46,966 nucleotides of DNA from Patescibacteria group bacterium (GCA_050947035.1 JBMNVW010000001.1:1-46966), one strand, 5' to 3'; counted from the stretch's first letter, positions 133 to 39,615 are shown. Numbers and translations: made by a program. The notes: generated from the sequence alone by a model not told the origin.

Positions 133-241
133 AAAGTCCTGCTTTATTATAACAAACAATATTTTTTATTTATTATTAATTACTAATTTAATTATTAAAA
201 ATTGAAATTTATTTGAAAATTGGTAATTGGAAATTTTAAGT

Positions 242-2820: not shown

Positions 2821-2895
2821 TAATTTTTCAAATTAAAAATAAATTCCAAATATCAAAATTCAAACTACAAACAAACTTCAATTTTCCAAATCCCG
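2821..2895. repeat. 7-nt periodic half-arm upstream of rplC
   Basis: AAATTCCAAATATCAAAATTCAAACTACAAACAAACTTCAATTTTCCAAATCCC, resembling the left arm at 4-50. Confidence 0.6.
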
Positions 2896-7947: not shown

Positions 7948-8050
7948 TTCCAATTCTAAATTTCAGAATAAAAACAATAATTAATAGATGTTTGTAATTT
8001 GTTAATTGAGATTTGTTTGGAAATAAATTGTAATTTGAAATTTGTAATTT
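7948..8050. repeat. 7-nt periodic inverted-arm element with no gene inside
   Basis: The reverse complement of 7990-8049 closely matches 22721-22775 (ACAATTTATTTCCAAACAAATCTCAA shared). Confidence 0.75.
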
Positions 8051-18496: not shown

Positions 18497-18533
18497 ATAA
18501 AAGAGCGGATATTAAAATTTCTAATTCCAACTC

Positions 18534-18588: not shown

Positions 18589-18597
18589 TATTGAAAA

Positions 18598-19794: not shown

Positions 19795-19866
19795 GTATTG
19801 GTAATTTTATTATAATTTTTTGCTTTTTGCAAATTAAAAGCCTCATTTGCCTGAGGCTAATCTCTA

Positions 19867-19953: not shown

Positions 19954-20030
19954 TTCTTTGCCTCTCTTTGAGGCTGGTTCTTAATATATCAAACTCTTTC
20001 CATTTTGGCAAGAGGGAAAACCTTATAAAT

Positions 20031-20128
20031 TTCCAATTGACCCAATTGCTCCAATTAACCCAAAAAAGTTTCCAATTAACCCATTGACCCAATTGACCCA
20101 AAAAAATAACCAATTTCCAAAACCCAAT
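20031..20128. repeat. 9-nt/7-nt periodic arm at the 3' flank of a four-helix-bundle gene
   Basis: Repeated CCAATTGAC/CCAATTAAC units, then CCAATTTCCAAAACCCAAT. Confidence 0.8.
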
Positions 20129-20130
20129 GC

Positions 20131-20505
20131 TTATTTTACTTTATTATAAATAGAGTTAAAGATTAAGGTAAGCTCTTTTGCCTCGGTCCACAATTTTTGC
20201 GCTTCATTCTTTTCTTGAGAAACAGCCTGACCGACCATTCTTAAAAAATGTTTTGATTCCTTCGCTTCTTTTTTAGAAATAGCGATTTTGTGTTTAAAAT
20301 CCTTCTTGGACTCGGCGTTATCTGCTTCACAATAATTAGCCCCAATACTAGTAGCCGCCTTAACCAACTGAGTAATAAGAGGTTTTGTTATCTCATTCTT
20401 CGGCAAATTTAAACAAAAAGAGATAACATCTTCTCCAAACTTAGCCGTTCTTTCTTCAAGGTTAAATTTTTCTAGCTGGTCCTGCTTATTTTTACCGTCA
20501 GCCAT
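20131..20505 (-). CDS. Four-helix-bundle protein (TIGR02436 / 23S rRNA IVP-like), between fusA and tuf
   Basis: LEERTAKF, QLVKAATSIGANYCEA, ESKKDFKHKIAISKKEAKES. ATG at 20505 preferred over the TTG at 20520. Confidence 0.92.
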   Translation of the reverse strand: MADGKNKQDQLEKFNLEERTAKFGEDVISFCLNLPKNEITKPLITQLVKAATSIGANYCEADNAESKKDFKHKIAISKKEAKESKHFLRMVGQAVSQEKNEAQKLWTEAKELTLIFNSIYNKVK

Positions 20506-20538
20506 TTCTTGGGCAAGCAAAAACTAGTTTTTTTTGTT

Positions 20539-20589
20539 AATTGGAAATTGGGATTTGTTTGGAAATTGGAAATTGGAAATTGGAAATTA
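20539..20589. repeat. 7-nt tandem arm (AAATTGG)n at the 5' flank of the four-helix-bundle gene
   Basis: AATTGGAAATTGGGATTTGTTTGGAAATTGGAAATTGGAAATTGGAAATT, inverted relative to 20031-20128. Confidence 0.85.
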
Positions 20590-20591
20590 TC

Positions 20592-22709
20592 TTACTTCTC
20601 TTCTTCTCCTCTTGTCTTAGCGACTAGGTCTTCTTGAATATTTCGAGGCAGTTCTTGGTAGTGGGACGGCTCCATGTAGAAAGAAGCCCGACCGCCGGTA
20701 ATATTTCTAACCGCGGTAGCATAGCCTGATAGTCCGGCCAAAGGTGCTTCAGCAGTAATCACCCGGGTATTGCCTCTAACCTTACTACCGCCAATTTGTC
20801 CCCGTCGGGAAGAAATATCGCCGATTACCTGGCCCATGAATTCTTCCGGACAGGTAACCTCTAGCTTCATAATCGGCTCTAAAACCTTGGGGGCTGCTCT
20901 CTTGGCCGCGGCCTGAAGGGCAATTGAGCCGGCAATCTTAAAAGCCATTTCCGAAGAATCAACATCATGAAAAGACCCATCAAAAACAACCACTTTCATA
21001 TCTACTAAGGGATAACCGGCCACAATTCCTTTATCCATGGCTTCAATAACCCCTTTTTCGATGGCCGGAATAAATTCTTGAGGAATTCGACCCCCCTTAA
21101 TTTCGGAATCAAACTCAAAGCCTTCACCCCGCCCCTTGGGTTCAACCCGTAACAAACAGTGGCCATATTGGCCCCGCCCACCAGACTGGCGGATATATTT
21201 TCCTTCCGCTTCCTCAATTTTGCTAATCGTTTCCCGATAGGCAATTTGAGGACTACCGGTACGTACTTTAAGACCAAACTCCCGGCGCAAACGCTCTACC
21301 AAAATCTCCAAATGCAGCTCTCCCATACCGGAAATTAGGGTTTGGCCGGTTTCTTGATTGGTTTTTACTCTAAAAGTAGGGTCCTCATCAGAAAGCCGCC
21401 CTAAAGATTTAGCTAATTTTTCCTGATCGGCCCGGGCTTCCGGTTCGATAGCCAAAGAAATTACCGGCTCAGGGAAAGAAATGGCTTCCAATAAAATCGG
21501 CTCATCTTTAGAACACAAAGCATCCCCGGTTTTAACATTGTCAAGACCAATAACGGCCACAATTTCCCCGGCATAGGCCTGGTCAATTTCTTCTCTTTTA
21601 TTAGCATGCATTAACAGCAGACGACCAATTCGCTCACTGTTTCTGGTGTTGGCGTTATAAGCTGAAGAACCGGCCTCTAGAGTACCGGAATAAATTCGTA
21701 AATAAGTTAGCTTGCCCACATGGGGATCGGTTTGGATTTTAAAAGCCAAAGCGCAAAACGGCTCTTTATTATCCGGCTTTCGGCTAATTTCCTCATCGGT
21801 GGCCGGATCCTTACCGGTAACCGGCGGCACATCCAAGGGGGAAGGCAAGAAATCTACCACCCCGTCAATCACCGGCTGAACGCCTTTATTTCGCAAAGAA
21901 GTGCCGCAATAAAGAGGAACAACCTTGTTAGCAATAGTGGCCCGACGAATACCGGCAATCAAATCTTTAGTAGAAATCTCTTCATCGGCCAAATACTTTT
22001 CCATTAGGGCTTCATCTTCACCCGCCACCAATTCCACTAAGCCGGCCCTGGTTTTTGCTAGCTTTTCTTTTAAATCGTCTGGAACCGGTATTTCTTTAAC
22101 TTTGGCCCCTAATTCATCATCCTCCCAAATATAGGCTTTTTGATCTAAAACATGGACGATACCACGAAAAGACTGTTCTTTGCCAATAGGAAGAGCAATA
22201 ATAGCCAGCTTGGCCGCCAGTCTTTCTTCAATCATGGCTACCGACCCGGCAAAATCGGCTCCTAACTTGTCCATTTTGTTCAAAAAACAAATTCGGGGCA
22301 CCTGATAGCGATCGGCCTGACGCCAAACCGTCTCTGATTGGGCCTGAACTCCTTCTTCGGCGTCAAAAACCATCACTGCCCCATCCAAAACCCGCAAAGA
22401 CCGCTCCACCTCAGCCGTAAAATCAACGTGGCCCGGTGTATCGATAATATTAATCCGATGATCTTTCCAAAAAGTAGTCGTAGCCGCTGATTGGATGGTA
22501 ATACCCCGTTCTTTTTCCTGGTCCATCCAGTCCATTTGAGTATCACCCTCGTCAATATCACCAATTTTATAGGTCTTGCCGGTGTAATAGAGAATCCGCT
22601 CGGTGGTGGTGGTTTTACCAGCATCAATATGGGCAATAATACCGATATTTCTAATTCGGTCTAGAAAAATGTTTCGATCTTCGGTTTTAGTAATTTGTCC
22701 GTTAGCCAT
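20592..22709 (-). CDS. fusA: Elongation factor G
   Basis: AHIDAGKTTTTERIL, ERGITIQSAA, DTPGHVDF, GMGELHLEI, HDVDSSEMAF. Confidence 0.99.
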   Translation of the reverse strand: MANGQITKTEDRNIFLDRIRNIGIIAHIDAGKTTTTERILYYTGKTYKIGDIDEGDTQMDWMDQEKERGITIQSAATTTFWKDHRINIIDTPGHVDFTAEVERSLRVLDGAVMVFDAEEGVQAQSETVWRQADRYQVPRICFLNKMDKLGADFAGSVAMIEERLAAKLAIIALPIGKEQSFRGIVHVLDQKAYIWEDDELGAKVKEIPVPDDLKEKLAKTRAGLVELVAGEDEALMEKYLADEEISTKDLIAGIRRATIANKVVPLYCGTSLRNKGVQPVIDGVVDFLPSPLDVPPVTGKDPATDEEISRKPDNKEPFCALAFKIQTDPHVGKLTYLRIYSGTLEAGSSAYNANTRNSERIGRLLLMHANKREEIDQAYAGEIVAVIGLDNVKTGDALCSKDEPILLEAISFPEPVISLAIEPEARADQEKLAKSLGRLSDEDPTFRVKTNQETGQTLISGMGELHLEILVERLRREFGLKVRTGSPQIAYRETISKIEEAEGKYIRQSGGRGQYGHCLLRVEPKGRGEGFEFDSEIKGGRIPQEFIPAIEKGVIEAMDKGIVAGYPLVDMKVVVFDGSFHDVDSSEMAFKIAGSIALQAAAKRAAPKVLEPIMKLEVTCPEEFMGQVIGDISSRRGQIGGSKVRGNTRVITAEAPLAGLSGYATAVRNITGGRASFYMEPSHYQELPRNIQEDLVAKTRGEEEK

Positions 22710-22720
22710 AATAATTTTTA

Positions 22721-22848
22721 AAATTACAAATCACAATTTATTTCCAAACAAATCTCAAATTACAATATTCAAACAATAATTTAAATTAAGCCTGGGATTT
22801 GAAAAATTGGAATCGTTTGGAAATTGTCATTTGGGATTTGAGATTTAC
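22721..22848. repeat. 7-nt periodic inverted-arm element with no gene inside, filling the rpsG-fusA spacer
   Basis: AAATTACAAATCACAATTTATTTCCAAACAAATCTCAAATTACAA ... TTGGAATCGTTTGGAAATTGTCATTTGGGATTTGAGATTT. Confidence 0.8.
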
Positions 22849-22852
22849 TAAT

Positions 22853-23329
22853 TTACCAGCGGAAGTGGCTGAAGGCTTTGTTGGCTTCGGCCATTCGGTG
22901 AGTATCTTCTTTTTTCTTAATGGCCAAGCCCTCATTTTTAACGGCGTCAACAATCTCCGCGGCCAATTTTTTGGCAAAAGTATGATATTCCTTGTTGGGC
23001 CGGGTTCTGGCCGCATCCACCAACCAACGAATAGCCAAAGACCGTTGGCGACGGCTTGATACCGGCATCGGAATCTGATAGGCGGCTCCGCCAATTCGCC
23101 TTGGTCGAACCTCCATTTGCGGCTTAATATTATCAATTGCCTCTTCCAAAACTGCCAAAGGTTCTTTTTTAGTCTTTTTAGCAGCTTCCTCCAAGGCCTG
23201 ATAAACGTGTTTTTGGGCAATAGTTTTTTTGCCCGAGATCATAACTTGATTAATAATTTTGGCCACCAACAGGCTGTCAAATTTAGGATCAGTCTCTGCC
23301 TTTCTTAGTTTTGCTTTTTTTCCACGCAT
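22853..23329 (-). CDS. rpsG: 30S ribosomal protein S7
   Basis: GKKTIAQ, EVRPRRIGGAAYQIP, HRMAEANKAFSHFRW. Confidence 0.99.
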   Translation of the reverse strand: MRGKKAKLRKAETDPKFDSLLVAKIINQVMISGKKTIAQKHVYQALEEAAKKTKKEPLAVLEEAIDNIKPQMEVRPRRIGGAAYQIPMPVSSRRQRSLAIRWLVDAARTRPNKEYHTFAKKLAAEIVDAVKNEGLAIKKKEDTHRMAEANKAFSHFRW

Positions 23330-23353
23330 AAAAAATTATTTTAATAATTTTTA

Positions 23354-23440
23354 AAATTACAAATCACAAATATCAATTTATTTCCAAATAAATTTCAAAT
23401 AACAATATTCAAACAATGATTTAAACTAAGTTTGGAATTT
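23354..23440. repeat. 7-nt periodic arm in the rpsL-rpsG spacer
   Basis: AAATTACAAATCACAAATATCAATTTATTTCCAAATAAATTTCAAATAACAATATTCAAACA, a near copy of 22721-22775. Confidence 0.8.
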
Positions 23441-23448
23441 TCCCTCAT

Positions 23449-23865
23449 TTATTTCTCTTGCGGCATTTTTGAGCCATATTTACTTCTTGATGTTTTCCGA
23501 TCAGCCACCCCTTCAACATCGTATTTACCCCGGATAATATGATATTTAATGCCCGGCAAGTCCTTGACTCGACCACCACGGACCATTACTCTGGCGTGTT
23601 CAACAATATTGTGGCCTTCACCAGGAATATAGGCAGTTATTTCTTGGCCATTAGAAAGCCTAACCCGGGCTACCTTTCGCAGGGCCGAATTAGGCCGTTT
23701 TGGCGTCATCGTTTTAGTCTGTAAAACTACTCCTCGTTTTTGAGGATTAATAGTTTTGACCATCTGTCTTTTAGCGGCATTAAAAGAACCACGTAAAGTT
23801 GTGGCCTTAACCGCTTTTTTCTTCTGTTTACGACCCTTTCTGGTTAATTGATTTATTGTTGGCAC
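23449..23865 (-). CDS. rpsL: 30S ribosomal protein S12 (GTG start)
   Basis: [38 protein letters not shown]. Confidence 0.99.
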
Positions 23866-23895
23866 CCTAGTTAATTTTCAATTATTAATTCTTAA

Positions 23896-23915
23896 CCTGC
23901 CTGCCGGCAAGCAGG
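23896..23915. repeat. 20-nt palindrome inserted into a 7-nt array
   Basis: CCTGCCTGCCGGCAAGCAGG; removing it restores a sequence like the uninterrupted one at about 27932-27968. Confidence 0.75.
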
Positions 23916-23958
23916 TTTTTATTCAATTTCTAATGATTTAATTTAAAAAATTTCCTTC

Positions 23959-24047
23959 GTCATCCTGATCCGCCAACTGGCGGAGAAGGATCCCGTCCTT
24001 GGTTGCCTTTCTCGGTCGGGATTCTTCGGGAGTACCCTCAGAATGAC
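23959..24047. repeat. GTCAT...ATGAC palindromic element (89 nt)
   Basis: GTCATCCTGA-TCCGCCAACTGGCGGA-GAAGGATCCC...GGGATTCTTCGGGAGTACCCTCAGAATGAC. Confidence 0.88.
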
Positions 24048-24059
24048 GAAAAAAGAAAA

Positions 24060-24131
24060 GCGCGAACTACTTGTCCGCCTTTGGCGGAAGGTTCGCTACT
24101 CCACAAACTGGCGCGGATTAAAATCCGCTAC
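24060..24131. repeat. Two GTAG-type REPs; the first is interrupted by a 19-nt insert
   Basis: GCGCGAACTA[CTTGTCCGCCTTTGGCGGA]AGGTTCGCTAC and GCGCGGATTAAAATCCGCTAC. Confidence 0.85.
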
Positions 24132-24186
24132 TTCAAATTTTGAACAACCCTGAACCCTTTGTGGTTCACGGGTTGGACTGCTAACT

Positions 24187-24195
24187 ATTATATCA
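24187..24195 (-). promoter_or_regulatory. Extended -10 promoter upstream of the rpsL operon
   Basis: TGaTATAAT on the minus strand just after the rpoC stop; no clear -35. Confidence 0.5.
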
Positions 24196-24203
24196 TCCTA
24201 AAG

Positions 24204-27200
24204 TCAAAAATCTAGCCAGTCTTCGTTGACTTTAGCCCGTTCGGGAGTAGTGGGAATCAAGCGGCCAATAATAACATTCTCTTTTAACCCAATCAGGGGG
24301 TCAATTTTACCCTTGAGGGAAGAGTTGGTTAAAACATTAGTCGTGGTTTGGAAAGAGGCGGCTGATAACCAGGAATTAGTCGTTAAAGCAGTTCGGCTAA
24401 TACCCAAAACGATTCTTTTGCCTTGGGCCGGCTGTTTACTGGCTTTTCTTGCTTTTCTGTTTTCAGCTCGGAATACTTCCCAATCAACATCACTATCAAT
24501 AATCAAATCCGTATCTCCGGCCGAAGAAACATGAACCTTGCTAGACATTTTTCTAATAATGACTTCAAAGTGCCGATCGTTAATGCCAATCCCCTGCGAC
24601 TCATAAACGCCTTGAATTTCGGCCAATAAATATTTTTGCGCCTCTTCTCGGCCACGAACTTTCAAGACATCTTCAATATCCAAAGCCCCAGCCGCTAATT
24701 GAGTTCCAGCCAAAATCTTATCACCCTTCTTTACTTTCAATTCTAATATCGCCGGGACATAATATTCCCTGGCATCGTCATCATTAGTGATAACTATTAA
24801 GTTGCCATCCTCTTTTTTCTTAATTGTTACCTTGCCGTCAATTTCGGCAATTGGTGACATGGACTTAGGAGTTCTGGTCTCGAACAACTCCTCAACTCGA
24901 GGCAGACCTTGAGTAACGTCAGCCCCAATTACTCCGCCAGAGTGCTTGGTTCTCATCGTCAGCTGAGTCCCCGGCTCACCGATTGACTGGGCGGCCAAAA
25001 CTCCCACCGGAGTGCCAATTTCGGCTAATTTTCTCGTAGAAAAATCCCAACCATAACATTTAGAGCAAACCCCATAAGGGGTTTGGCAAGTTAAGGCCGA
25101 ACGAACAACAACGGAATCAATCTTTTCTTTCTTAATTAGGCTCAGAGCTTTTTCGTTAATAATTTCATTCTGTTTTATTAGGGTTTTTCGACCTTTTTTA
25201 ACCGGTTCAGCCAAAAATCGACCCAGAACCCGCGCTTCAAATTTCTCCGCTCGTAGTCCTTTTCGGCTAATTTTAATTCCCTTCTTAGTACCACAATCTT
25301 CTTCGCGAACCAACATGTCGTGGGCGGCATCAACTAATCTTCTAGTTAAATAGCCAGCATCGGCAGTTTTTAGAGCCGTGTCGGTTAATCCTTTTCGGGA
25401 GCCACGAGCCGAAGTGATGTATTCAAAAACAGATAGTCCCTCTCTAAAATTAGATTTAGTCGGCATAGGAACAATGTTGCCCATCGGATCAACCAATAAA
25501 CCTCGCATGGCCGATAATTGTTTTACTTGGTCACGAGAAGCCCGAGAAACTTTAGCATCAATAATTAGTTTTACCGGAGAGGTCTCGTCAAATAATTCCC
25601 AGGTTTTGTCAGCCAACTCTTCAGTGGTTTCGATCCAAATTTGCTGGGCTAAACGCTCTTTTTCTGATTCAGTAATTAAGCCTTGTCCAAAGCTTTCATT
25701 AACTTCCAAAACTCTCTTTTCCGCCTGAGCGATAACCTTGTCTTTATTAGGATAAAGTAGGTTATCATTGACCCCAACTGATAAACCAGAAATTGTCCCC
25801 GCCCAAAAACCCAAATCTTTTACTTTATCAATCATCTCTACGACCAATTCCTTATCATTATTATTTAAAAGCTGGTTGAAAATTTTCTTTAAAAGGGTAG
25901 AGTCGACGTTTTCGTTAACAAAACTAATTTCTTCGGGTAGAATTTTATTGAAAATAATCCGACCAACGGAGGTTTTTACTTCTTTGCCTTGATACCAAGC
26001 CTTGACTGGCTGGCGCAACCCTAATTTGCCGCGCTGATAGGCTAAAATTGCCTCATTAAAATCTAAAACAGAAGAATAGGCCTTGCCGACAGGATCAATT
26101 GTGGTCAAATAATAAATCCCCAAGGCCATCTCTTTTCGGCTGGGAACAGAAACCGGTGAGCCATCGGCCGGCTTCAACAAATTGTTAGAAGGGGTCATTT
26201 TTTCAATTGCCTCCACTTGGGCCTCTTCTGACAAGGGCAAGTGAACGGCCATTTGGTCACCATCAAAATCGGCATTAAAACCAGAGCAAACACAAGGATG
26301 AAGCTTAATTGCCAAACCATCAACCAAAACCGGATAAAAAGCTTGGACCGAAAGTTTATGAAGAGTTGGGGCTCGATTCAACAAGACCACCTTATTTTTT
26401 ACCACTTTAGCTAAGACGTCATAAACTTCCGGCGGGCGCTGTTCTAAAACCACTTTCGCCGAACGAATATTGGGAGCCAAACCCTGGATAATCATTTCAT
26501 GTAAAACATGAGGCTTAAACATTTCTAGAGCAATTTCTTTAGGCAAACCGCACTGGTCAAGTTTTAATTTTGGCCCGACAATAATTACTGAACGACCAGA
26601 ATAATCAACTCTTTTACCCAGCAAGTTCTGACGGAAACGACCTTTTTTACCTTTAAGCATTTCCGACAAGGAGCGTAGCTCTCGATAAGAAGATCGCTGC
26701 CGACGACGAATTTGAGAAGAATCAATTAAGTTGTCAACCGCCTCCTGAAGCATCCGCTTTTCATTTCGCAAAATAATTTCCGGAGCACCAATATCAATTA
26801 AGTTATTAAGTCTATTATTACGGTTAATAACTCGCCGATAAAGGTCGTTAAGATCAGAAGTAGCAAATTTACCCCCGGTTAATTGAACCATTGGTCTTAA
26901 ATCAGGTGGTAAAACCGGCAAAATATCCATGATCATCCAAACCGGATCAATCTCCGCCTCAATCAGGTCATTAATTAAAGTAATACGCTGATAAAGTTTT
27001 CTTAACTTGGTTTTACTGCGAGTTTCTTTGGTAGCTTTCTTAAGCTCTTTTAAAGTCTTTTTTAGATCTAGCTTCTTAATTGCCGAAATTAGGCCTTCGG
27101 CCCCCATTTTGGCGGTAAAGAAATCGCCGGCCCCATGATCGCAAAGAGTAAAATATTCATCTTCGGAAAGAAAGTCCAGAAAAGCCATCGATTTAACCTT

Positions 27201-27917
27201 TTTTTCCAAGAACTGATATAAACGATCAATGGTTTTTTCCTGCTTTTCTTGTTCGACTTTGGCCTGTTGAATTTTTCTTTTAGTCTGAATTTCTAACTCC
27301 GTTAAGGCCAATTCTTGAGCCTCTTTGTCTTTAATTTTTTTCTTAACCTCTTCCTTTTCTTTTTGGGCTTTATTCTTTATTTCTTTTATTTTTTGCTTTT
27401 GGCCTAAACTAATTTTCTCGATTTCATTTTTATGATCTCGACCCAAGTTAGATAAAACCTTTTTTCTTTTTTCTTCATCAACCTCAATAATTAGGTAGTT
27501 AGTAAAGTAAATAACTCGCTGTAAGTATTTATTGGAAACACCAAAAAGAATTGATAATGGCGAAACCGAACCCTTAAAATACCAAACATGAGCACAGGGA
27601 GTAGCCAAACTAATATGACCCATGCGCTCTCTTCTAACTCGAGATCGAGTGACCTCAACACCACACTTATCACAAATAACTCCTTCATAGCGACGATGCT
27701 TATATTTACCGCAATAACACTCCCAATCACGAGTGGGACCAAAAATTCGCTCACAGAAAAGACCGTCTTTTTCCGGCTTTAGGGTGCGGTAATTAATCGT
27801 CTCTGATTTGGTTATTTCGCCATGAGACCAAGAACGAACCTCCTCTGGTGAGGCTAGTTTTATTTTTAGAGCCTCAAAGTCGGCAATTTGATCGTTAAAA
27901 TAGCGTTTATCAACCAT
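24204..27917 (-). CDS. rpoC: RNA polymerase beta' subunit
   Basis: ETINYRT, GLFCERIFGP, NADFDGDQMAVH, AAQSIGEPGTQLTMRT, GLKENVIIG. Confidence 0.99.
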   Translation of the reverse strand: MVDKRYFNDQIADFEALKIKLASPEEVRSWSHGEITKSETINYRTLKPEKDGLFCERIFGPTRDWECYCGKYKHRRYEGVICDKCGVEVTRSRVRRERMGHISLATPCAHVWYFKGSVSPLSILFGVSNKYLQRVIYFTNYLIIEVDEEKRKKVLSNLGRDHKNEIEKISLGQKQKIKEIKNKAQKEKEEVKKKIKDKEAQELALTELEIQTKRKIQQAKVEQEKQEKTIDRLYQFLEKKVKSMAFLDFLSEDEYFTLCDHGAGDFFTAKMGAEGLISAIKKLDLKKTLKELKKATKETRSKTKLRKLYQRITLINDLIEAEIDPVWMIMDILPVLPPDLRPMVQLTGGKFATSDLNDLYRRVINRNNRLNNLIDIGAPEIILRNEKRMLQEAVDNLIDSSQIRRRQRSSYRELRSLSEMLKGKKGRFRQNLLGKRVDYSGRSVIIVGPKLKLDQCGLPKEIALEMFKPHVLHEMIIQGLAPNIRSAKVVLEQRPPEVYDVLAKVVKNKVVLLNRAPTLHKLSVQAFYPVLVDGLAIKLHPCVCSGFNADFDGDQMAVHLPLSEEAQVEAIEKMTPSNNLLKPADGSPVSVPSRKEMALGIYYLTTIDPVGKAYSSVLDFNEAILAYQRGKLGLRQPVKAWYQGKEVKTSVGRIIFNKILPEEISFVNENVDSTLLKKIFNQLLNNNDKELVVEMIDKVKDLGFWAGTISGLSVGVNDNLLYPNKDKVIAQAEKRVLEVNESFGQGLITESEKERLAQQIWIETTEELADKTWELFDETSPVKLIIDAKVSRASRDQVKQLSAMRGLLVDPMGNIVPMPTKSNFREGLSVFEYITSARGSRKGLTDTALKTADAGYLTRRLVDAAHDMLVREEDCGTKKGIKISRKGLRAEKFEARVLGRFLAEPVKKGRKTLIKQNEIINEKALSLIKKEKIDSVVVRSALTCQTPYGVCSKCYGWDFSTRKLAEIGTPVGVLAAQSIGEPGTQLTMRTKHSGGVIGADVTQGLPRVEELFETRTPKSMSPIAEIDGKVTIKKKEDGNLIVITNDDDAREYYVPAILELKVKKGDKILAGTQLAAGALDIEDVLKVRGREEAQKYLLAEIQGVYESQGIGINDRHFEVIIRKMSSKVHVSSAGDTDLIIDSDVDWEVFRAENRKARKASKQPAQGKRIVLGISRTALTTNSWLSAASFQTTTNVLTNSSLKGKIDPLIGLKENVIIGRLIPTTPERAKVNEDWLDF

Positions 27918-27989
27918 AATAATTTTTAATTTCTAATTTTTAATTCTTATTGAATTTCTAATGATTTAATTTTTTAAAAATTTCCCCCC

Positions 27990-28070
27990 GTCATCCTGAT
28001 CCGCCAACTGGCGGAGAAGGATCTCATTCCTTGCCTGAACGAGATTCTTCGGGAGTACCCTCAGAATGAC
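27990..28070. repeat. GTCAT...ATGAC palindromic element (81 nt) overlapping the rpoB 3' end
   Basis: Same arms as 23959-24047; contains the rpoB stop codon. Confidence 0.88.
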
Positions 28071-31000
28071 GAGAAAGAGTTGATTTTTTACCTTCAGCCT
28101 TGTCCTTTTTGGTCTTTTTCTCTTTTTTCTTTTTTTTGGCCGCTTCTTTTTTTTGAGCTTGAGTCTTAGGCAAAGAAACAGCCTCACCAGACTCTTCTTT
28201 AATTTCTTCGACCACGTCTTCTGGTTCTTTTTCCACCACTCCTTCCGGGGTTACCGCCAAACTTAAGCTCTTTAACTCGGAAACCAAAACTTTAAACGAT
28301 TCCGGGATCCGCGATTGGGGAATTTGAGTTCCTTTGACAATCGCCTCAAAGGCCTTGGCTCGACCAACCACGTCGTCGCTTTTAATAGTCAACATTTCCT
28401 GAAGGGCATGAGCAGCTCGATGGGCCTCCAAACCCCAAACCTCCATTTCCCCAAAACGCTGACCACCCATTTGGGCCTTGCCGCCCAGGGGCTGTTGAGT
28501 AACCAAAGAATAAGGGCCGATAGAGCGAGCATGGATTTTATCCTCCACCATGTGAACAAGTTTTAAAATATGGGCGTTACCAACTACTACTCTTTCCTCA
28601 TAAGGGGCCCCGGTTCGGCCATCAAAAACGGTTAGTTTATAATCTTCCTCTAAACCGGCCCTCTTAAACTCTTCGGCCAAAAACTTTTCATCAAATTTTT
28701 CAAAAACAGGTAAGGCTACTCGATAGCCCAATTTTTGGGCCGCTAAGCCAAGATGAGCTTCTAAAAGTTGGCCTAAATTCATTCTTGATAACACCGAAAG
28801 AGGGGAAATAATCAAATCAACCGGCGTGCCATCAGATAAATAAGGCATGTCAGCCTCAGAAACAATTTTGGAAATAATCCCCTTATTGCCATGACGACCA
28901 GAGAGTTTGTCGCCAACTTTGATTTTTCTCATTTGGGCTACCCGAACGGTTACCTTTTTATTAATCCCGGAAGGTAATTCCTCATCTTCCTCTCGATCAA
29001 GAATCTGAACCTCAATTACCACACCTTCAACACCATGGGGCATTCTTAAGGATGTATCTCTTACTTCTCGAGCCTTTTCACCAAAAATAGCCCTTAATAA
29101 TCTTTCTTCGGCCGTTAATTCTGTCTCCCCTTTGGGAGCAATTTTACCCACCAAAATATCATTAGCGGCAACTCGAGAGCCAATAACCACAATGCCATCA
29201 TCACCAAGCTTGGCCAACTCTTCTTCAGAGACGTTAGGAATATCGGCAGTCAGCTCTTCCGGTCCAAGTTTTGTATCAGCCACTTCAGCGGTATACTCAT
29301 TAATAGTAATCGAGGTTAATAAATCTTCCTTGACTAAACGGTCAGAAATTACAATTGCGTCCTCATAACCCAAACCTTCATAAGAACAATAAGCAATAGT
29401 CAAGTTTTTGCCTAAGGCCAACTCACCGTTTTCACAAGAAGGACCATCAATAACCAAATCGCCTTTTTTAATCTTTTGGCCAACCTTAACAGCCGGTTTT
29501 TGAGAATAACAAGTGCCGTAAGGAGAGGTGCGAACAAACTTACTAATTGAATAAGTTTCCTCATCGCCACTAATTTCAATATTGTCGTTTTCCTCCTTAT
29601 TCTCTTTGAGCTTTTTGGGTTTGTCAACCTTAACAATTACTTTTTGACCATCAACATAAACCACCTTACCGGCGTGACGGGCTCTAACGGTTCGACCCAA
29701 AGACTGAGGAATAACCGCTTCCATGCCGGTCCCAACCAAAGGAGCATCGGGCTTAATTAAAGGAACAGCCTGACATTCCATGTGTGAACCCATTAAGGCT
29801 CGGGAGGGTTCGTCGTGATCAAGAAAAGGAATTAGGGAAGCCGAAGCACCAACGATTTGGCGGGGGCAAACATCAATCAATTGGACTTGATCGACGGAAA
29901 CGTCTAAAAACTCGCCCTGATATCGAGCCGGGACTAATTTTTCGGTAATATAGCCATCTTTATCAATGGCAACATCATTGGCCGTAATGTAATATTCTTC
30001 TTCATCATCAGCAGGAAGATAAACAATCTCATCGGTCACTTTCATTTTGGTTTTACCACCACGAGTTTCTTTAACTACTTTTTTATAGGGAGTTTCCAAA
30101 AAGCCATATTCATTAACCTTGGCATAAAGAGCCAAATAGGTAACCAGGCCAATATTTTGCCCCTCGGGACTTCGGACCGGACAAACTCGACCATATTGAG
30201 AGGCAGAAACGTCCCGAATTGAAAAGGGGGCCCTTTCTCTGGTTAAACCACCCGGACCCATAACCGACAAACGACGTAAGTTATCAAGCTCGGATAAGGG
30301 GTTGGTTTGATCAAGGATGGTCGAAAGCCTGTTGGTTCGGAAAAACTCATTGATAGCGGCAATAATTGGCTGGCTATTAATTAAGGCGGATAAATTAACA
30401 TCTTGATCGCGAGACAATAAAACCATTCGGTCTCTGATCATCCGCTCAAAACGAGACAAACCAATTCTAAAAGGCACCTGAGAAATTAATTCGCCCACAC
30501 AACGAAGGTGACGATTAGATAAATGATCAATATCATCGATCCTTCCTTCTCCTTCAAGCAAGCCAACTAAATAAGAAAGGGTGGCTAAAAAGTCACCCTT
30601 CTTTAAAACCATCCCATCGGGATTATTTTTGGTTTTTAACCCCAAACGTTTATTAATCTTGTAACGACCAACCGGACTAAGACTATAGCGGCGAGGGTTA
30701 AAAAAAGCATTTTGGAAAAATTCCTCGGCATTTTCAATCACCGCTGGCTCACCGGGGCGCATTTTTTGATAAATCTCGATTAAGGCTTCCTGACGGGTCT
30801 CCGTTGTGTCATTATTAAGAGTGGGAACAATGGTTTCGCCGAGTTGATCAACAATTTCCTGACTACTCATTCCTAAAGCTTTTAGGATAACGGTAGCCGA
30901 GAATTTTCGCCGTCGATCAATTCGAGCAGAAATAACATTATCATTGTTGCTAACAAATTCCAGCCAAGACCCAAAAAGCGGTCTAATTTCCGCTTCATAA

Positions 31001-31461
31001 AGAGTTTTTCCTGTTCGCTTATCTACATCATCGGTAAAATAAACACCAGGGGCACGAGTAACCTGAGAAACAATACAACGCTCAACACCATTAATAATAA
31101 AGGTTCCCCGTTGGGTCATTTGGGGCAAATCAAAAAGAAAAGTCCGTTTTTGCCAAGTTCGGCCAGTCTGAAGGCTGGTTAGAGTAATGTCACAATCAAC
31201 CGAAACCGTGTAAGAAAGGCCACGACGAATAGCTTCTTGGGAAGTAGTATTGGTTTCGGAAATATGATAATCGCCCAAATCCAATTGCCAGCGTTGGCCG
31301 GTCTGATCTTTAACCGGAGAAATTCCGCCCAACCCCTCGGCAATGCCATCTTTTAAAAACTCTTGCCAAGAATCTTTTTGAACGGCCAGAAGATCCAAAG
31401 GAGGCAGTTTAGAATACTTCTTGCCTAAAACAACTTGATTATTTTTTTTATTTACCTCCAT
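28024..31461 (-). CDS. rpoB: RNA polymerase beta subunit
   Basis: GTFIINGVER, DDIDHL, GDKLSGRHGNKG, TQQPLGGKAQMGGQRFGEME; charged low-complexity C-terminal tail. Confidence 0.99.
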   Translation of the reverse strand: MEVNKKNNQVVLGKKYSKLPPLDLLAVQKDSWQEFLKDGIAEGLGGISPVKDQTGQRWQLDLGDYHISETNTTSQEAIRRGLSYTVSVDCDITLTSLQTGRTWQKRTFLFDLPQMTQRGTFIINGVERCIVSQVTRAPGVYFTDDVDKRTGKTLYEAEIRPLFGSWLEFVSNNDNVISARIDRRRKFSATVILKALGMSSQEIVDQLGETIVPTLNNDTTETRQEALIEIYQKMRPGEPAVIENAEEFFQNAFFNPRRYSLSPVGRYKINKRLGLKTKNNPDGMVLKKGDFLATLSYLVGLLEGEGRIDDIDHLSNRHLRCVGELISQVPFRIGLSRFERMIRDRMVLLSRDQDVNLSALINSQPIIAAINEFFRTNRLSTILDQTNPLSELDNLRRLSVMGPGGLTRERAPFSIRDVSASQYGRVCPVRSPEGQNIGLVTYLALYAKVNEYGFLETPYKKVVKETRGGKTKMKVTDEIVYLPADDEEEYYITANDVAIDKDGYITEKLVPARYQGEFLDVSVDQVQLIDVCPRQIVGASASLIPFLDHDEPSRALMGSHMECQAVPLIKPDAPLVGTGMEAVIPQSLGRTVRARHAGKVVYVDGQKVIVKVDKPKKLKENKEENDNIEISGDEETYSISKFVRTSPYGTCYSQKPAVKVGQKIKKGDLVIDGPSCENGELALGKNLTIAYCSYEGLGYEDAIVISDRLVKEDLLTSITINEYTAEVADTKLGPEELTADIPNVSEEELAKLGDDGIVVIGSRVAANDILVGKIAPKGETELTAEERLLRAIFGEKAREVRDTSLRMPHGVEGVVIEVQILDREEDEELPSGINKKVTVRVAQMRKIKVGDKLSGRHGNKGIISKIVSEADMPYLSDGTPVDLIISPLSVLSRMNLGQLLEAHLGLAAQKLGYRVALPVFEKFDEKFLAEEFKRAGLEEDYKLTVFDGRTGAPYEERVVVGNAHILKLVHMVEDKIHARSIGPYSLVTQQPLGGKAQMGGQRFGEMEVWGLEAHRAAHALQEMLTIKSDDVVGRAKAFEAIVKGTQIPQSRIPESFKVLVSELKSLSLAVTPEGVVEKEPEDVVEEIKEESGEAVSLPKTQAQKKEAAKKKKKEKKTKKDKAEGKKSTLSRHSEGTPEESRSGKE

Positions 31462-31496
31462 TAAAAAGTTAAAAAACTCTTATAGCGCCAAAAAAA

Positions 31497-31621
31497 CAAC
31501 CAGGCTACCGATCAAAAGTCAAAAAAAGAAAGGACCATTAAAAAAAACCCCCTTTGTTGATTGGGGATATTTTTTATCCTAACAGTTAACCCGGCTGACA
31601 ATAATTTTTGAAATCAACAAA
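31497..31621 (-). promoter_or_regulatory. Putative structured 5' leader of rpoB
   Basis: Long-range stem, an internal hairpin followed by a T-run, and a perfect 10-nt complement of that hairpin's loop upstream. Confidence 0.4.
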
Positions 31622-31658
31622 ATGACCTTAAATTAAATACCAAAGAAGCAATGAGATT

Positions 31659-31687
31659 AATATAACATAGGGCTAAAAAAATTGCAA
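31659..31687 (-). promoter_or_regulatory. Sigma70-type promoter for rpoBC
   Basis: TTGCAA-17 nt-TATATT with extended -10 TG. Confidence 0.6.
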
Positions 31688-31770
31688 GGGAATGAGCGAA
31701 TAATATCTAGTCTTTTGTATTTTGTATTTAAAAAAATTAATAAAAACTCTTCTTCATTATATTAAACCGC

Positions 31771-32784
31771 CTATCTTAAATAACGGTTAATATTTTCTTC
31801 GTGTTCGGCTAAGGTTTTAGCCAAATGAAGCTCCCCCGAAGAACCTGATAAATAATACCAGTAGGGTGAATCTTGAGGGGCATTGGCAACTGCCTCAATT
31901 GCTCCCGGTGAGGGGTTGCAAATTGGTCCTGGTGGAAGGGCTTTATTTTGATAGGTGTTGTAAGGAGAACTAATTGTTTTGATGTCTTGGCTAGTTGCTT
32001 TCGGCCACCAGACGCATTGGGCCGGATGGCTTCTTTGACAATTTTGATTAGCCAAAGCATATTGAACTGTAGCGTCAACTTGGAGAGGCCAATCATTTCT
32101 TATCCGATTTAATAAAATTCCGGCTATAATCTGCTGGTCGGATTGGGTCTTTGCCTCTCTTTCTGCTAAAGAGGCCAAAACAATTAAGGCCTCCTCGTTC
32201 AAACCTCGGTCTTGAGCTTTTAATAGGGTCGCCTCATCTACCTTGGCCTGATAATTATTTTTAATAATCTGCCAGAAGTTATCCCAAGAAGCATTTTGGG
32301 GAATAAGATAGGAATCGGGCATTAAGTAGCCCTCGTTGGCCTTTAAGTTTTCAAACCAAATTTCATCAAAGCCCGATAATTTTTCCTTTAAAACCAAAGC
32401 GACTTCTTCGGCTCTTGTGCCAGGAATAATCGTTACCCAAACATCTAACGAGCCAGAGATTAGGTTTTTGGCAATTTCTTCAGCTGTCATAGCCGGCGAA
32501 AGTCGAAAGCTTCCGGCTTGAATTTTTTGACTCAAACCTTCTTTTTGAACCAAAATAATAAAAGGCCAAGCTTTTTTAATTAAACCGGCTTTTTCTAATC
32601 GACTAGCAACTGAGTTTAAATTTTCCCCGGAGGAAATAACAAACATTGTTTCTTCCTGGCTGCCTGAATCAACCGGCCCCAAATTAGCCGAGTAAACAAA
32701 AAACCCAACAAGAAGAGCTAAAAAAATAAAAAAACCTCCTGCAAAAAGGAGATTCAAACCGGAAAGTTTTTCCTTCAACAACAT
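31771..32784 (-). CDS. mltG: Endolytic transglycosylase MltG (YceG family)
   Basis: N-terminal TM; EGYLMPDSY, LASLAEREA, LQVDATVQY, SPYNTY, LPPGPICNP. Confidence 0.95.
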   Translation of the reverse strand: MLLKEKLSGLNLLFAGGFFIFLALLVGFFVYSANLGPVDSGSQEETMFVISSGENLNSVASRLEKAGLIKKAWPFIILVQKEGLSQKIQAGSFRLSPAMTAEEIAKNLISGSLDVWVTIIPGTRAEEVALVLKEKLSGFDEIWFENLKANEGYLMPDSYLIPQNASWDNFWQIIKNNYQAKVDEATLLKAQDRGLNEEALIVLASLAEREAKTQSDQQIIAGILLNRIRNDWPLQVDATVQYALANQNCQRSHPAQCVWWPKATSQDIKTISSPYNTYQNKALPPGPICNPSPGAIEAVANAPQDSPYWYYLSGSSGELHLAKTLAEHEENINRYLR

Positions 32785-32807
32785 AAAAATAATGTCTATT
32801 TTCTTTA

Positions 32808-33008
32808 TTAAACTTCTTTAAAGAGGGCCCGGCGATATTTTTTGGTTTTAGGATCGTAAATAAAAATCCGGCCGCATTGGCAAGTTACTTTTTCGGTCTT
32901 ATCTTTTCTTTTAGTTCGCTTGGCTTTTTCTAGAGGTGTTCCACAACCGACACAGCGTTCCTGAGACAACAACCAGGCTTGGACCGGAGCAATAATATTT
33001 TTAAACAT
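32808..33008 (-). CDS. Small basic zinc-ribbon-like protein (CxxC...CxC)
   Basis: CVGC and CQCG; strong SD AAGGAGGTG before the ATG at 33008. Confidence 0.75.
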   Translation of the reverse strand: MFKNIIAPVQAWLLSQERCVGCGTPLEKAKRTKRKDKTEKVTCQCGRIFIYDPKTKKYRRALFKEV

Positions 33009-33068
33009 AGTCACCTCCTTTTTCTTCGAATGAGTTTCTTTTTCAATTTTTTTTCTAATTAACCTTTA

Positions 33069-33446
33069 TTATCTATTATCAGCAAAATAAGCAGCTAAAA
33101 TTTGAGCAGCAGCAACAGCATCAATTCTCCCCTTTCTATCCTTTCTCCTAGTTTGACTTACGAGCATTTTATCAGCGGCCTCTTTGGTTGTCAAAGCCTC
33201 ATTTTGAAAAACAATCGGCAAAGCAAGGTGCTCTTTTAGCTTTTTGGCAAACAGGTTAACTTCCTCTTTTAGGTCCTGGCTGAAACCTAAAACCACCAGA
33301 TCAATCGCCTCATCAGAACAAACCTCTTTTATCGAATCAAAGATGTTTTTATTATTTGGGCAAACTAAAAGAGGGGCCACTAGGCCCTTTTCGCCAAAAG
33401 CCAAACCAATTCTTTTTTTACCGTAATCAATACCAAGATAACGCAC
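33069..33446 (-). CDS. ruvX: YqgF/RuvX family nuclease (pre-16S rRNA processing / resolvase-like)
   Basis: YLGIDYGKKRIGLA, NEALTTKEA, IDAVAAAQIL. Confidence 0.92.
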   Translation of the reverse strand: MRYLGIDYGKKRIGLAFGEKGLVAPLLVCPNNKNIFDSIKEVCSDEAIDLVVLGFSQDLKEEVNLFAKKLKEHLALPIVFQNEALTTKEAADKMLVSQTRRKDRKGRIDAVAAAQILAAYFADNR

Positions 33447-33456
33447 CTTATAAAAT

Positions 33457-33521
33457 AAATTTCTAAATTATAATTTCTAAACCCTAAACAAATTCTAAAT
33501 ATTAAATTACAAATAGCAAAC
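33457..33521. repeat. 7-nt periodic arm at the 3' flank of a four-helix-bundle gene
   Basis: AAATTTCTAAATTATAATTTCTAAACCCTAAACAAATTCTAAATATTAAATTACAAATAGCAAAC. Confidence 0.75.
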
Positions 33522-33523
33522 GA

Positions 33524-33889
33524 TTATTTTGAATTTTCTAAGATTGACCCAAATATTTTCATTAGTTCTGTCGCTTCATTAATTAAGTCTTTTCTTTTCC
33601 TTTCTAGCCCTTGATTATTTTCTATGTCGATTAATTTTAACCAATATCGACTTTCTTTGGCTTCTTTTTTACTAATCTTTATTCTCATAATAAAATCTTT
33701 TTTGCTTAAAGACTCATTGGCCTCAATATAATTAGCCCCCACTGAACCGGATGATCTGATTAGTTGTTTACCATCTTCAAAATTAGCAATTGATTTTTTA
33801 ATATTCTTGATCAACCTTCGACAATCATCAGAAAACTTCAATGTTCTATCTTCTAAATCAAATTGTTTGTGGTTTGAGATTTGATTCAT
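33524..33889 (-). CDS. Four-helix-bundle protein (TIGR02436 / 23S rRNA IVP-like)
   Basis: FDLEDRTLKF, KQLIRSSGSVGANYIEANESLSKKDFIMRIKISKKEAKESRYWL. Confidence 0.93.
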   Translation of the reverse strand: MNQISNHKQFDLEDRTLKFSDDCRRLIKNIKKSIANFEDGKQLIRSSGSVGANYIEANESLSKKDFIMRIKISKKEAKESRYWLKLIDIENNQGLERKRKDLINEATELMKIFGSILENSK

Positions 33890-33892
33890 TGT

Positions 33893-33964
33893 TGTTTGTT
33901 TAGATTTTAGAATTTAGAGATTAGGGTTTGGTTTTGGGACTTTGGGGTTAGGTTGTTGGAATTT
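33893..33964. repeat. 7-nt periodic arm at the 5' flank of the four-helix-bundle gene
   Basis: GTTTAGATTTTAGAATTTAGAGATTAGGGTTTGGTTTTGGGACTTTGGGG..., partly complementary to 33457-33521. Confidence 0.75.
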
Positions 33965-33992
33965 CATTAGGTCAATTAGAATAATTTTCTTC

Positions 33993-34730: not shown

Positions 34731-34790
34731 AAAATTTACAATTTACAATTTACAATTTTCAATCAATTTTCAAATAACAATTTTTAATGA
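34731..34790. repeat. 7-nt tandem half-arm (AATTTAC)n
   Basis: AAATTTACAATTTACAATTTACAATTTTCAATCAATTTTCAAATAACAATTTTTAAT fills the whole spacer. Confidence 0.75.
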
Positions 34791-39396: not shown

Positions 39397-39564
39397 GGGC
39401 GCCCACAAAGGGCGCCCCTACCGTATGTTGTGTTTTGTTGTCGTTTCCCCCCGTAGGGGCGGACCCATGTGTCCGCCCGTCATTATTAATCACAATAATC
39501 CCATGAATATGATTGGGCATGATTTGGTAAATATCCAAATCAACGTTTTGGTAACGATTGGGTA
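39397..39564 (-). pseudogene. RAYT remnant: HUH segment with internal GTAGGGG-type REPs
   Basis: Minus frame reads PNRYQNVDLDIYQIMPNHIHGIIVINNDGRTHGSAPT..., homologous to 17575-18156; REPs at 39397-39421 and 39453-39478; no recognisable N- or C-terminal RAYT motifs. Confidence 0.8.
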
Positions 39565-39615
39565 ATTGAAAAATTGAAAATTTATTGAAAATTGGAAATT
39601 GGAAATTGGAAATTT
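39563..39615. repeat. 7-nt tandem half-arm (AAATTGG)n
   Basis: AATTGAAAAATTGAAAATTTATTGAAAATTGGAAATTGGAAATTGGAAATT. Confidence 0.8.

Follow-up and report, generated by a model that had tools for sequence, protein, structure and literature searches.

What are the two small genes that sit, each between a pair of inverted heptamer arrays, in operon spacers of the DNA analysed here, and could they belong to a mobile element? The window, meaning the whole stretch that was analysed, corresponds to bases 1-46,966 of contig C1 in a Candidate Phyla Radiation (CPR) genome (G000; 776,739 bases in 23 contigs, ~39% G+C). Its minus strand carries, in this order, a sortase gene, a small gene, ruvX/yqgF, mltG, rpoB, rpoC, rpsL, rpsG, fusA, a second small gene and tuf. 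Both small genes encode four-helix-bundle (4HB) proteins, whose family has had, since the 1990s, no description other than "the ORF in 23S rRNA intervening sequences" (ORF, open reading frame). A first-pass annotation had proposed that these genes, the arrays that bracket them (hereafter arms) and gene-less copies of the arms constitute an undescribed mobile or RNA-level element, and this interpretation is partly supported by our analysis. Each window gene with its two arms is best explained as one copy of a small selfish cassette of the intervening sequence (IVS) type, lodged in operon spacers and accompanied by gene-less derivatives, a reading to which we give a probability of roughly 0.55.

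Two arm-bounded genes in operon spacers

Genes were assigned to the 4HB family with the models TIGR02436 and PF05635 ("23S rRNA-intervening sequence protein") at cut-offs of 24 and 33.8 bits, respectively, and periodicity at a given lag was scored out of 21. The gene of element 1 (20131..20505, minus strand) encodes 124 aa of the ANYxEA subfamily and scores 71.4 bits with TIGR02436 and 52.6 bits with PF05635. Its 5′ arm on the mRNA (20533..20589, minus strand) is an (AATTTCC)n array that runs from 2 nt past the fusA stop codon to ~27 nt ahead of the 4HB start codon; Tandem Repeats Finder (TRF) places a period of 7 at 20559-20588 (4.3 copies, 100% matches), and lag 7 scores 21/21. The 3′ arm (20028..20127, minus strand) is G/U-rich, with a 9-nt period reading GTCAATTGG on the mRNA and an internal 38-nt duplication (TRF 20033-20101, period 9, CCAATTGAC; 20030-20105, period 38; lag 9 = 17/21 vs lag 7 = 13). 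The 9-nt arm pairs with the 7-nt arm through a common CCAATT core, leaving 2-nt bulges. In the predicted RNA fold the ORF is closed by the arms in both the minimum free energy and the centroid structures, and the fold energy of the whole element marginally beats that of shuffled sequences (z -2.0).

Element 2 lies between the sortase gene and ruvX/yqgF. Its gene (33524..33889, minus strand; 121 aa, ANYxEA subfamily) scores 71.1 bits with TIGR02436 and 53.4 bits with PF05635. The 5′ arm (33890..33985, minus strand), located between the sortase stop and the 4HB start, is A/C-rich (…CCCTAATCTCTAAATTCTAAAATCTAAAC…; lag 7 = 17/21; TRF 33899-33918, period 7), and the G/U-rich 3′ arm (33452..33523, minus strand; TTTAGAA / TTAGGGTTTAGAAATT; TRF 33456-33508, period 7) ends 5 nt ahead of the ruvX/yqgF start. 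Here too the arms are predicted to pair and to close the ORF.

Arm-to-arm complementarity was compared with 1000 dinucleotide-preserving shuffles of each element. The observed score was equalled by 2/1000 shuffles in element 1 (score 41) and by 3/1000 in element 2 (score 33); AT-richness alone is therefore insufficient as an explanation, and the bracketing of two TIGR02436-like genes by inverted arrays, as first described, holds beyond composition. An A/C-rich arm precedes and a G/U-rich arm follows the gene on the mRNA at both elements, and both genes are co-oriented with their neighbours (fusA > 4HB > tuf; sortase > 4HB > ruvX/yqgF), again as claimed. The 7-nt periodicity attributed to the arms needs one correction: among the 13 stretches tested (the arm stretches of the first-pass annotation together with 27918-27975), lag 7 came out best in 11, while the period of element 1's 3′ arm is 9 nt.

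The 4HB family profile matches the solved structures of PDB entries 2gsc (XCC0516; E 4e-30) and 2rld (E 4e-28) over nearly their full length. Residues Q46, N57, E60 and E83, numbered as in the window protein, are invariant. In profile searches of the ORFs of the window elements no transposase or recombinase was found, PF05635 and TIGR02436 being the sole matches. Contigs from four DNA sequencing runs over 19000-23500 were short and of low depth and neither bridged nor skipped the cassette cleanly. A promoter-like stretch (TTTCCCTCTTGCNAAAA…GAGTNTGATATATTAAGAACCAGC; window 19930-19990) is conserved before tuf in all close relatives. Since the cassette sits between the fusA stop codon and this stretch, tuf may be served by a promoter of its own, located downstream of the insert.

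Arms accompany the gene family across phyla

Across phyla, the arm-gene-arm layout characterises the gene family. G000 itself has six TIGR02436 genes, five of which are bracketed by inverted arrays whose unit varies from copy to copy. When 707 testable ORFs of this genome were ranked by the complementarity of their flanks, these five genes took ranks 2, 3, 6, 10 and 13 (hypergeometric p 5e-9; Mann-Whitney p 3e-4), so the arms are tied to 4HB genes beyond other genes. Among 29 loci from relatives, flank complementarity was matched by 0/200 shuffles in 16 and by ≤5/200 in 22, with periods of 7 and, less often, 8 nt.

A scan with an alignment of the NIAEG-type subfamily, one genome per species, returned 80 loci, of which 77 were testable. 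Their hosts belong to Gammaproteobacteria, Bdellovibrionales, Bacteroidota, Acidobacteriota, Planctomycetota, Chloroflexi, Nitrospirae, Firmicutes, Cyanobacteria, Bosea, several CPR groups and others. Calling a flank 7-periodic at ≥16/21 for lag 7, we found 84 such flanks out of 154, compared with 8 at lag 8 and ≤2 at any other lag, and complementarity stood at 0/200 shuffles in 51 of the 77 loci. In displaced controls, made by shifting the tested segments 620 nt within these same loci (147 control loci, 100 shuffles each), 8/294 flanks were periodic (Fisher p 4e-38) and 1/147 loci complementary (p 1e-29). A metagenome scan with an alignment of the ANYxEA type, the subfamily of the window genes, gave 80 loci, 71 of them testable; 58/142 flanks were 7-periodic and 44/71 loci stood at 0/200 shuffles. 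The layout is present in GC-rich hosts as well, e.g. Bosea, Anaerolineae and Acidobacteriota.

The arm geometry shows medians of 7.5 nt from the end of the arm to the start codon and 7 nt from the stop codon to the onset of the other arm, a stem of ~32 bp and a strictly periodic run of 3.1 units showing no peak at 5. The neighbouring gene is on the same strand upstream at 65/74 loci and downstream at 57/75. The gene also occurs in 45 plasmid records, mostly of Nostoc (20) and Calothrix (4). Plain arms were seen on plasmids of Calothrix brevissima, N. punctiforme and Riemerella; in Nostoc PCC 7120 a single arm remains, and an insertion sequence adjoins the pCC7120gamma copy. Phage records gave no match to the 4HB protein.

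Filled, arms-only and empty sites among relatives

Comparison with three genomes of the same genus (G001, G002 and G003) shows that, from one congener to another, fixed sites have gained the cassette, lost it or had it replaced. The fusA-tuf spacer is 797 nt and filled in G000; it measures 336 nt in G001, with arms and a REP-like (repetitive extragenic palindromic) insert and no gene, 189 nt in G002, with one arm, and 148 nt in G003, where it is armless and empty. All four spacers end in the common promoter-like stretch before tuf. Similarly, the sortase-yqgF spacer is filled in G000 (546 nt), arms-only in G002 (~148 nt), where the arms have their outer ends in common with those of G000, and empty in G001 (21 nt). 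Thus, at both sites that had been singled out for comparison, filled, arms-only and empty alleles exist; a target-site duplication was evident at neither. In G003 the rpsL-rpsG spacer is ~25 nt long and without arms, and by reading its rpsG-fusA spacer (127 nt) we found no hairpin like that at 22721..22848 of the window.

Replacement was seen at a third site (C2:78379), where an ANYxEA-type gene with 7-nt arms in G000 corresponds to an NIAEG-type gene with 8-nt arms in G001 and G002, the two occupants being only distantly related. The orthologues of G001 and G002 at this site give a ratio of nonsynonymous to synonymous substitution rates (dN/dS) of 0.06 at dS 0.97; the ORF is thus under strong purifying selection at the protein level.

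Copy number varies as well, from 0 to 20 4HB genes per genome among 40 relatives, one genome of the same genus having none. We sampled 100-400 kb from each of 12 relatives and added the whole of G000, giving 13 genomes. Arrays of period 7 or 8 numbered 0, 0, 0.5, 1.0, 2.2 and 2.5 per 100 kb in the six zero-copy genomes, 3.0 in a one-copy genome and 5.0 to 30.2 in those with at least 5 copies. Array density rises with 4HB copy number (Spearman rho 0.86, p 1.7e-4, a p that overstates the case, the 13 genomes being related and non-independent). At equal G+C within the genus, G000 has 73 arrays in 777 kb vs 2 in 400 kb of the congener without 4HB genes. In short, only gene-carrying genomes abound in ORF-less arm pairs and single arms. 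The autonomous/non-autonomous pair suggested for the window passes the tests set for it (association with the gene, allele types and a complementarity beyond composition), although the dependence of gene-less arrays on the gene is correlational only.

An unusual context was observed in a relative (G004, L041, C1:460400-463723; ORF 1405-1848), in which a 4HB cassette with TTCACNG-type heptamer arms lies within the intein of a giant surface-protein gene. The cassette is read in another frame, and the host frame is open across the whole cassette; locus L045 (G024) shows the same intein context.

Arrays across the genome and in its rRNA and tRNA genes

Heptamers stand out among the tandem repeats of G000. 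At ≥90% identity there are 26 arrays of period 7 and 0 at every other period from 5 to 15, with 0 in block shuffles; at 80% identity there are 73, vs 0 in shuffles and ≤10 at other periods of 6-12 nt. Of the 73, 7 lie ≤130 nt from a 4HB gene and 5 fall within the 23S rRNA gene; crude ORF calls contain a further 11, and the remaining 50 are intergenic. Gene-less arm pairs number in the dozens. The TTGGAAA unit occurs at element 1 as well as at some gene-less arrays, the arms being otherwise diverse, and all six 4HB copies with their arms have diverged from one another.

The 23S rRNA gene of this genome is 3539 nt long vs the 2925 positions of the Rfam model. Its surplus consists of ORF-less hairpins of the window type, each with an A/C arm, a loop and a heptamer-built G/U arm, at model positions about 283 (167 nt), 583 and 1218, plus one further, fourth insertion; cmscan of a 321-nt piece around this fourth insertion gave no match. 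In the E. coli structure, positions 583 and 1218 are in helices 25 and 45, the two classical IVS sites. The idea that the window elements are mRNA-level intervening sequences gains one strong circumstantial argument from the fact that ORF-less hairpins fill the genome's own 23S insertions; the sense-strand G:U tolerance expected of an RNA-level stem was not seen (below). Beside each of the four 23S heptamer hairpins (C2:26279-28363, L007) there is a small conserved GC hairpin, CTTGTCC-NNNN-GACAAG, with the variants CCTGTTC…GAACAGG and CTTGTGC…GCACAAG. These small hairpins may cap the interrupted rRNA helix.

One 4HB gene of G000 is situated between two tRNA-Met genes. At this locus (C1:102640-103430, L009) a second copy of the 3′ end of tRNA-Met and of its TAGTCNT arm lies ~200 nt downstream, immediately ahead of the 4HB gene. 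Elsewhere AAAGACT/AGTCTTT arrays closely flank a tRNA-Leu(taa) gene on both sides (C4:52261-52426, L008). Moreover, three heptamer arrays lie in frame within the leucyl-tRNA synthetase gene (C6:21599-24268, minus strand, L010) and read as KFPIFNFQFSN, GKIGNWKLEIENS and KIENWKLKIGNS in translation; a pair of them, 700 nt apart, is mutually complementary. Cassette-type arms thus occur within coding sequence without breaking it.

Polarity and units of the arms

The order of the arms, G-rich first or C-rich first, is identical on both strands and is thus a property of the hairpin itself. NIAEG-type cassettes were 51 G-first, 2 C-first and 5 ambiguous (n = 58), and ANYxEA-type cassettes 25 C-first, 6 G-first and 17 ambiguous (n = 48; 31 to 4 by A+C vs G+T content). 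The two subfamilies are therefore of opposite polarity (Fisher p 1e-13). Of the gene-less hairpins, those read in the window, next to it and in the 23S gene share the C-first polarity of the resident subfamily; a match of such hairpins to the 4HB subfamily of each genome in turn left too few scorable pairs.

No universal arm motif was found: 43% of the NIAEG-type units contain TAG and 95% of the ANYxEA-type ones ATT. Among the latter, AAATTGG (equivalent to TTGGAAA, the unit of the window) was tied for commonest, and the 69 arms of the NIAEG subfamily have nearly as many different units. A rule of one repeat per subunit of a pentamer was also rejected, the strictly periodic runs having the median of 3.1 units and no peak at 5 given above.

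Proposed mechanism and alternative explanations

We favour a selfish IVS-type cassette because copy number varies between genomes, filled, arms-only and empty alleles coexist, one subfamily replaces another at a site, the sites occupied tolerate inserts (rRNA helices, spacers past stop codons, tRNA flanks and the intein in G004), and the derivatives track the gene. Such a cassette would consist of ~30 bp of tandem 7-nt (sometimes 8- or 9-nt) units on one side and the reverse complement on the other, with a ~120-codon 4HB ORF filling the loop to ~7 nt from each arm. It would be transcribed by read-through from the host operon, and its arms could then pair in the transcript into a long stem cuttable by RNase III, whose gene (rnc; 260.6 bits) is present in G000. 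The insert would in this way be tolerated, as it is in rRNA, and expression of the ORF controlled. The tandem-repeat build would permit pairing in several registers and growth by slippage. The protein, presumably a ring-forming relative of Avd, a factor of diversity-generating retroelements (DGRs), would be the only product of the cassette and may act on arm nucleic acid, serving the spread or upkeep of the cassette, and the gene-less hairpins would be its non-autonomous or decayed derivatives. Both the cutting of mRNA arms by RNase III and a spreading or maintaining role of the protein are put forward because of the rRNA precedent. More tentatively, the 4HB ring might grip single-stranded 7-nt tandem units and promote copying or insertion of arm-bounded cassettes into transcribed hairpin loops, a specific version that we consider rather improbable. 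If true, one 4HB family would be the agent behind rRNA IVSs, behind dispersed heptamer arrays of the STRR (short tandemly repeated repetitive) type and behind the arm-only hairpins with which genomes such as G000 are dotted, in operons, tRNA genes and even coding sequences.

Several observations weigh against the selfish cassette. Taken as a whole, element 2 folds no more stably than shuffled sequences do (z +1.3), and mismatches in 58 stems, counted on the sense strand, comprise 72 G:U vs 102 A:C, so that selection tolerating wobble pairs in the sense RNA was not seen in these stems. Clear arms are absent from about a quarter to a third of the loci. Shared exposure, rather than dependence, could underlie the correlation between array density and copy number among related genomes. 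Loss, and recombinational replacement, could account for part of the polymorphism, and purifying selection fits a useful host gene and a selfish one equally. Finally, no transposase, target-site duplication or near-identical copies were seen in G000, and all six copies and their arms have diverged, giving no sign of recent movement.

Perhaps the protein simply reads the arms. A 4HB ring would then bind single-stranded heptamer arrays, as RNA or DNA, with about one subunit per repeat; the arms would be an operator or packaging site, their pairing secondary (e.g. as an anti-operator), and the gene-less arrays further binding sites, making up either a scattered regulon or a set of targets spread over the chromosome. 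Ring proteins, HutP and TRAP among them, bind short RNA repeats set at even intervals, and Avd binds the reverse transcriptase (RT) and template RNA. The two closest solved relatives have 5 chains each in their PDB entries, arms hold a few repeats in ~32 nt, polarity differs by subfamily (p 1e-13), units are alike within the ANYxEA subfamily (95% with ATT) and array density follows copy number. Additionally, the Xanthomonas protein is described as a homopentameric toroid in the accessible text of PMC4990558, which cites Lin 2006. Yet almost every NIAEG element has a different unit, which makes a fixed sequence preference unlikely, and the periodic run, of median 3.1 units, shows no peak at a pentamer's 5; we hold this explanation to be unlikely on balance, if the foremost of the alternatives. 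An ordinary host gene whose arms form a conserved regulatory stem, acting on translation or mRNA stability with nothing mobile about it, would account for the strong purifying selection (dN/dS 0.06), for a stem that abuts the start and stop codons and for co-orientation with the neighbours. It is poorly reconciled with filled, arms-only and empty alleles at two congener sites, with 0-20 copies in relatives and none in one genome of the same genus, with different subfamilies at one site, with copies between tRNA genes, in an intein and, by the part of the literature accessible to us, in rRNA, and with dozens of gene-less arm pairs. We find it improbable.

About equally improbable in our view is an element that moves at the DNA level through a trans-acting enzyme (e.g. 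a RAYT, i.e. REP-associated tyrosine transposase, or HUH-type nuclease, or a recombinase), with arms serving as single-stranded DNA hairpin ends and the 4HB gene as cargo or accessory. The missing excess of G:U on the sense strand would suit it, as would a polarity that is independent of the strand and so, by reasoning, a property of a DNA palindrome, and the REP-like palindromes beside some arms. However, arm sequences vary by copy, and an end-binding enzyme that is sequence-specific would not accept this; the layout is met again in phyla whose mobile-element repertoires are very different, and no enzyme gene accompanies the cassette at the two window elements and the loci L373-L377, which were read (most other flanks being unannotated). 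The arrays might also be a mutational by-product, slippage creating heptamer arrays in AT-rich spacers where 4HB genes merely sit. Heptameric simple sequence repeats (SSRs) are over-represented in many bacteria and slippage has been proposed as their source (PMC4692102, in the text available to us), and most arrays of G000 are not beside a 4HB gene. This reading is already contradicted by the controls (8/294 displaced flanks vs 84/154 true ones periodic): arms are complementary beyond mere periodicity, the layout holds in GC-rich Bosea, Anaerolineae and Acidobacteriota, and a congener of equal G+C without 4HB genes has 2 arrays in 400 kb vs 73 in 777 kb. We regard it as very unlikely.

Relation to known systems

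Among the closest known systems is the 23S rRNA IVS of Coxiella, and by citation of Leptospira, Xanthomonas and Brucella, in which inverted repeats at the termini build a stem and enclose an ORF of the PF05635 family, as in the window (accessible text of PMC4990558). Versions without the ORF exist among rRNA IVSs, including the rRNA insertions of CPR bacteria (accessible parts of PMC4990558 and PMC11270868), just as they do here. In the Coxiella burnetii IVS three GACAGAT heptamers in tandem, their number varying by strain, immediately precede the S23p start codon; the RNase III cut is placed at the first heptamer and the IVS site in helix 45 (PMC4990558, same text). In contrast to rRNA IVSs, the window copies occupy the mRNA spacers fusA-tuf and sortase-yqgF, another copy lies between tRNA genes, tandem arm units of 7 to 9 nt run through the whole family, and gene-less arms are scattered over the genome. 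Excision by RNase III is characteristic of rRNA IVSs; for the window cassettes the same step would apply by analogy. The term "undescribed" holds for the element only within the literature searched, while ORF-bearing rRNA IVSs and the S23p heptamers of Coxiella had already been published (PMC4990558, as far as its accessible text goes).

Intergenic heptamers have been reported as well: the STRR sequences of Calothrix and Nostoc, GGGAATC of Xanthomonas and GGGGA(C/T)T of Nostoc (PMC4692102), and TAACTGA in Beggiatoaceae, Cyanobacteria and Bacteroidetes (PMC4679880). According to the available portions of these two papers, such repeats resemble the arms in being tandem 7-nt units, intergenic and often in convergent inverted pairs (70-75 in Xanthomonas), and their length varies between close strains. 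The taxa that carry them are rich in the 4HB family, its plasmid hits being mostly in Nostoc and Calothrix. The available portions propose G-quadruplexes, translational control or slippage and draw no link to 4HB genes. The arrays of G000 fit the description of heptameric SSRs, being tandem 7-nt, mostly intergenic and in excess over other periods. We consider the STRR, GGGAATC and TAACTGA repeats candidate cassette arms. In the literature searched, within the accessible parts of its papers, no report was found that links heptamer arrays to 4HB genes outside rRNA; subscription-only papers and database family comments lay outside that scope.

Avd is a homologous four-helix bundle, the bAvd protein of G000 matching the 4HB profile at 86.7% probability (E 4e-6, profile-profile comparison). 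Relatives of the window proteins give sub-threshold matches to PF22296 (bAvd); the window proteins themselves have none at E up to 1. The DGR of G000 (C1:134190-138510) comprises an RT (134190-135365, 391 aa), a bAvd of 112 aa (PF22296 75.7 bits) and a 777-aa putative target. The only RT of the genome (C1:134427-135038) falls within these RT coordinates, the window genes are not beside an RT or a template repeat, and the bAvd is flanked by REP-like palindromes and by no heptamer arms. The window genes are Avd homologues and no parts of a DGR.

Many gene-less inverted-repeat copies beside few gene-bearing ones, with abundance tied to the gene, recall transposons and their MITEs (miniature transposable elements with inverted repeats) or the REP/RAYT pairs. 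The cassette differs from these in having no recognisable transposase or HUH domain, arms that are not common between copies and no target-site duplication seen. With homing-endonuclease genes it shares a small free-standing ORF in insert-tolerant sites (rRNA helices and one relative's intein), while it has no nuclease motif or splicing element. One testable system would join three matters: the function of a widespread 4HB family, the origin and spread of rRNA IVSs and the excess of 7-base intergenic repeats. The tiny cassette, of one 120-codon gene and two ~30 bp arms, occurs in bacteria that are culturable and genetically tractable, for instance Nostoc and Flavobacterium. As regards annotation, relics of this one family may account for many of the "intergenic hairpins", operon spacers and rRNA insertions of the CPR and of other bacteria.

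Gene-less arms and other repeats of the window

Three gene-less arm pairs had been noted in the window, and all are true inverted arrays. The hairpin at 4..132, downstream of rplB, has an A/C arm, a loop and a G/T arm ending in (TTGGAAA)4 (TRF 101-130, period 7), with fold z of -1.95 and -2.44 on the two strands. That at 7948..8050 lies between two large plus-strand ORFs and folds at -22.7 kcal/mol (z -2.6) on the plus, transcribed strand vs -8.2 kcal/mol (z about -0.1) on the minus strand. The third (22721..22848; fold z -2.8) is in the rpsG-fusA spacer of the str operon. Altogether, 5 of the 6 strand folds have z of -1.95 to -2.8, the exception being 7933-8056 on the minus strand (z -0.13).

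Single arms are present at every place where half-arms had been listed, one of them in a weak form. They are found at 196..237 (TTGAAAA / TTGGTAA / TTGGAAA; TRF 213-235, period 7), at 2821..2895 (A/C-rich on the plus strand; lag 7 = 16/21), at 34731..34790 between the sortase gene and its upstream ORF ((AATTTAC)4; TRF 34733-34763, period 7, 4.4 copies, 95%) and at 39563..39615 ((ATTGGAA)4; TRF 39584-39614, period 7, 4.4 copies, 95%). The stretch at 23354..23440 in the rpsL-rpsG spacer is weakly periodic (lag 7 = 14, lag 11 = 15) and is either a half-arm or a decayed hairpin. A further half-arm lies directly upstream of rpoC (27918..27975; TRF 27920-27949, period 7; lag 7 = 18/21).

The window has a third TIGR02436 gene (3388..3942, plus strand), which carries a C-terminal TIGR04258 suffix domain (TIGR04258 81.9 bits, TIGR02436 33.3 bits). 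Its flanks hold no arms and rank 368 of 707 for complementarity. It is probably of a different, non-cassette paralogue lineage of the family. Between this gene and a downstream ORF of 1327 aa there are 6 nt, and several relatives have frames comparable to the gene in length (about 190-210 aa).

Another intergenic repeat family of the window consists of REP-like GC-rich palindromes of the GCGCGGACTAAAGTCCGC and AGTAGCGCAATTTATTGCGCGC types, and there is in addition a longer intergenic repeat module (CGTCATCCTGATCCGCC…GGCGGAGAAGGATC / GGGATTCTTCGGGAGTACCCTCAGAATGAC). The palindromes and the module occur at 1022-1504, 2811-3387, 12276-12359, 18497-18597, 19795-20000, 23866-24203, 42451-42823 and 44519-44685, and both frequently adjoin heptamer arms.

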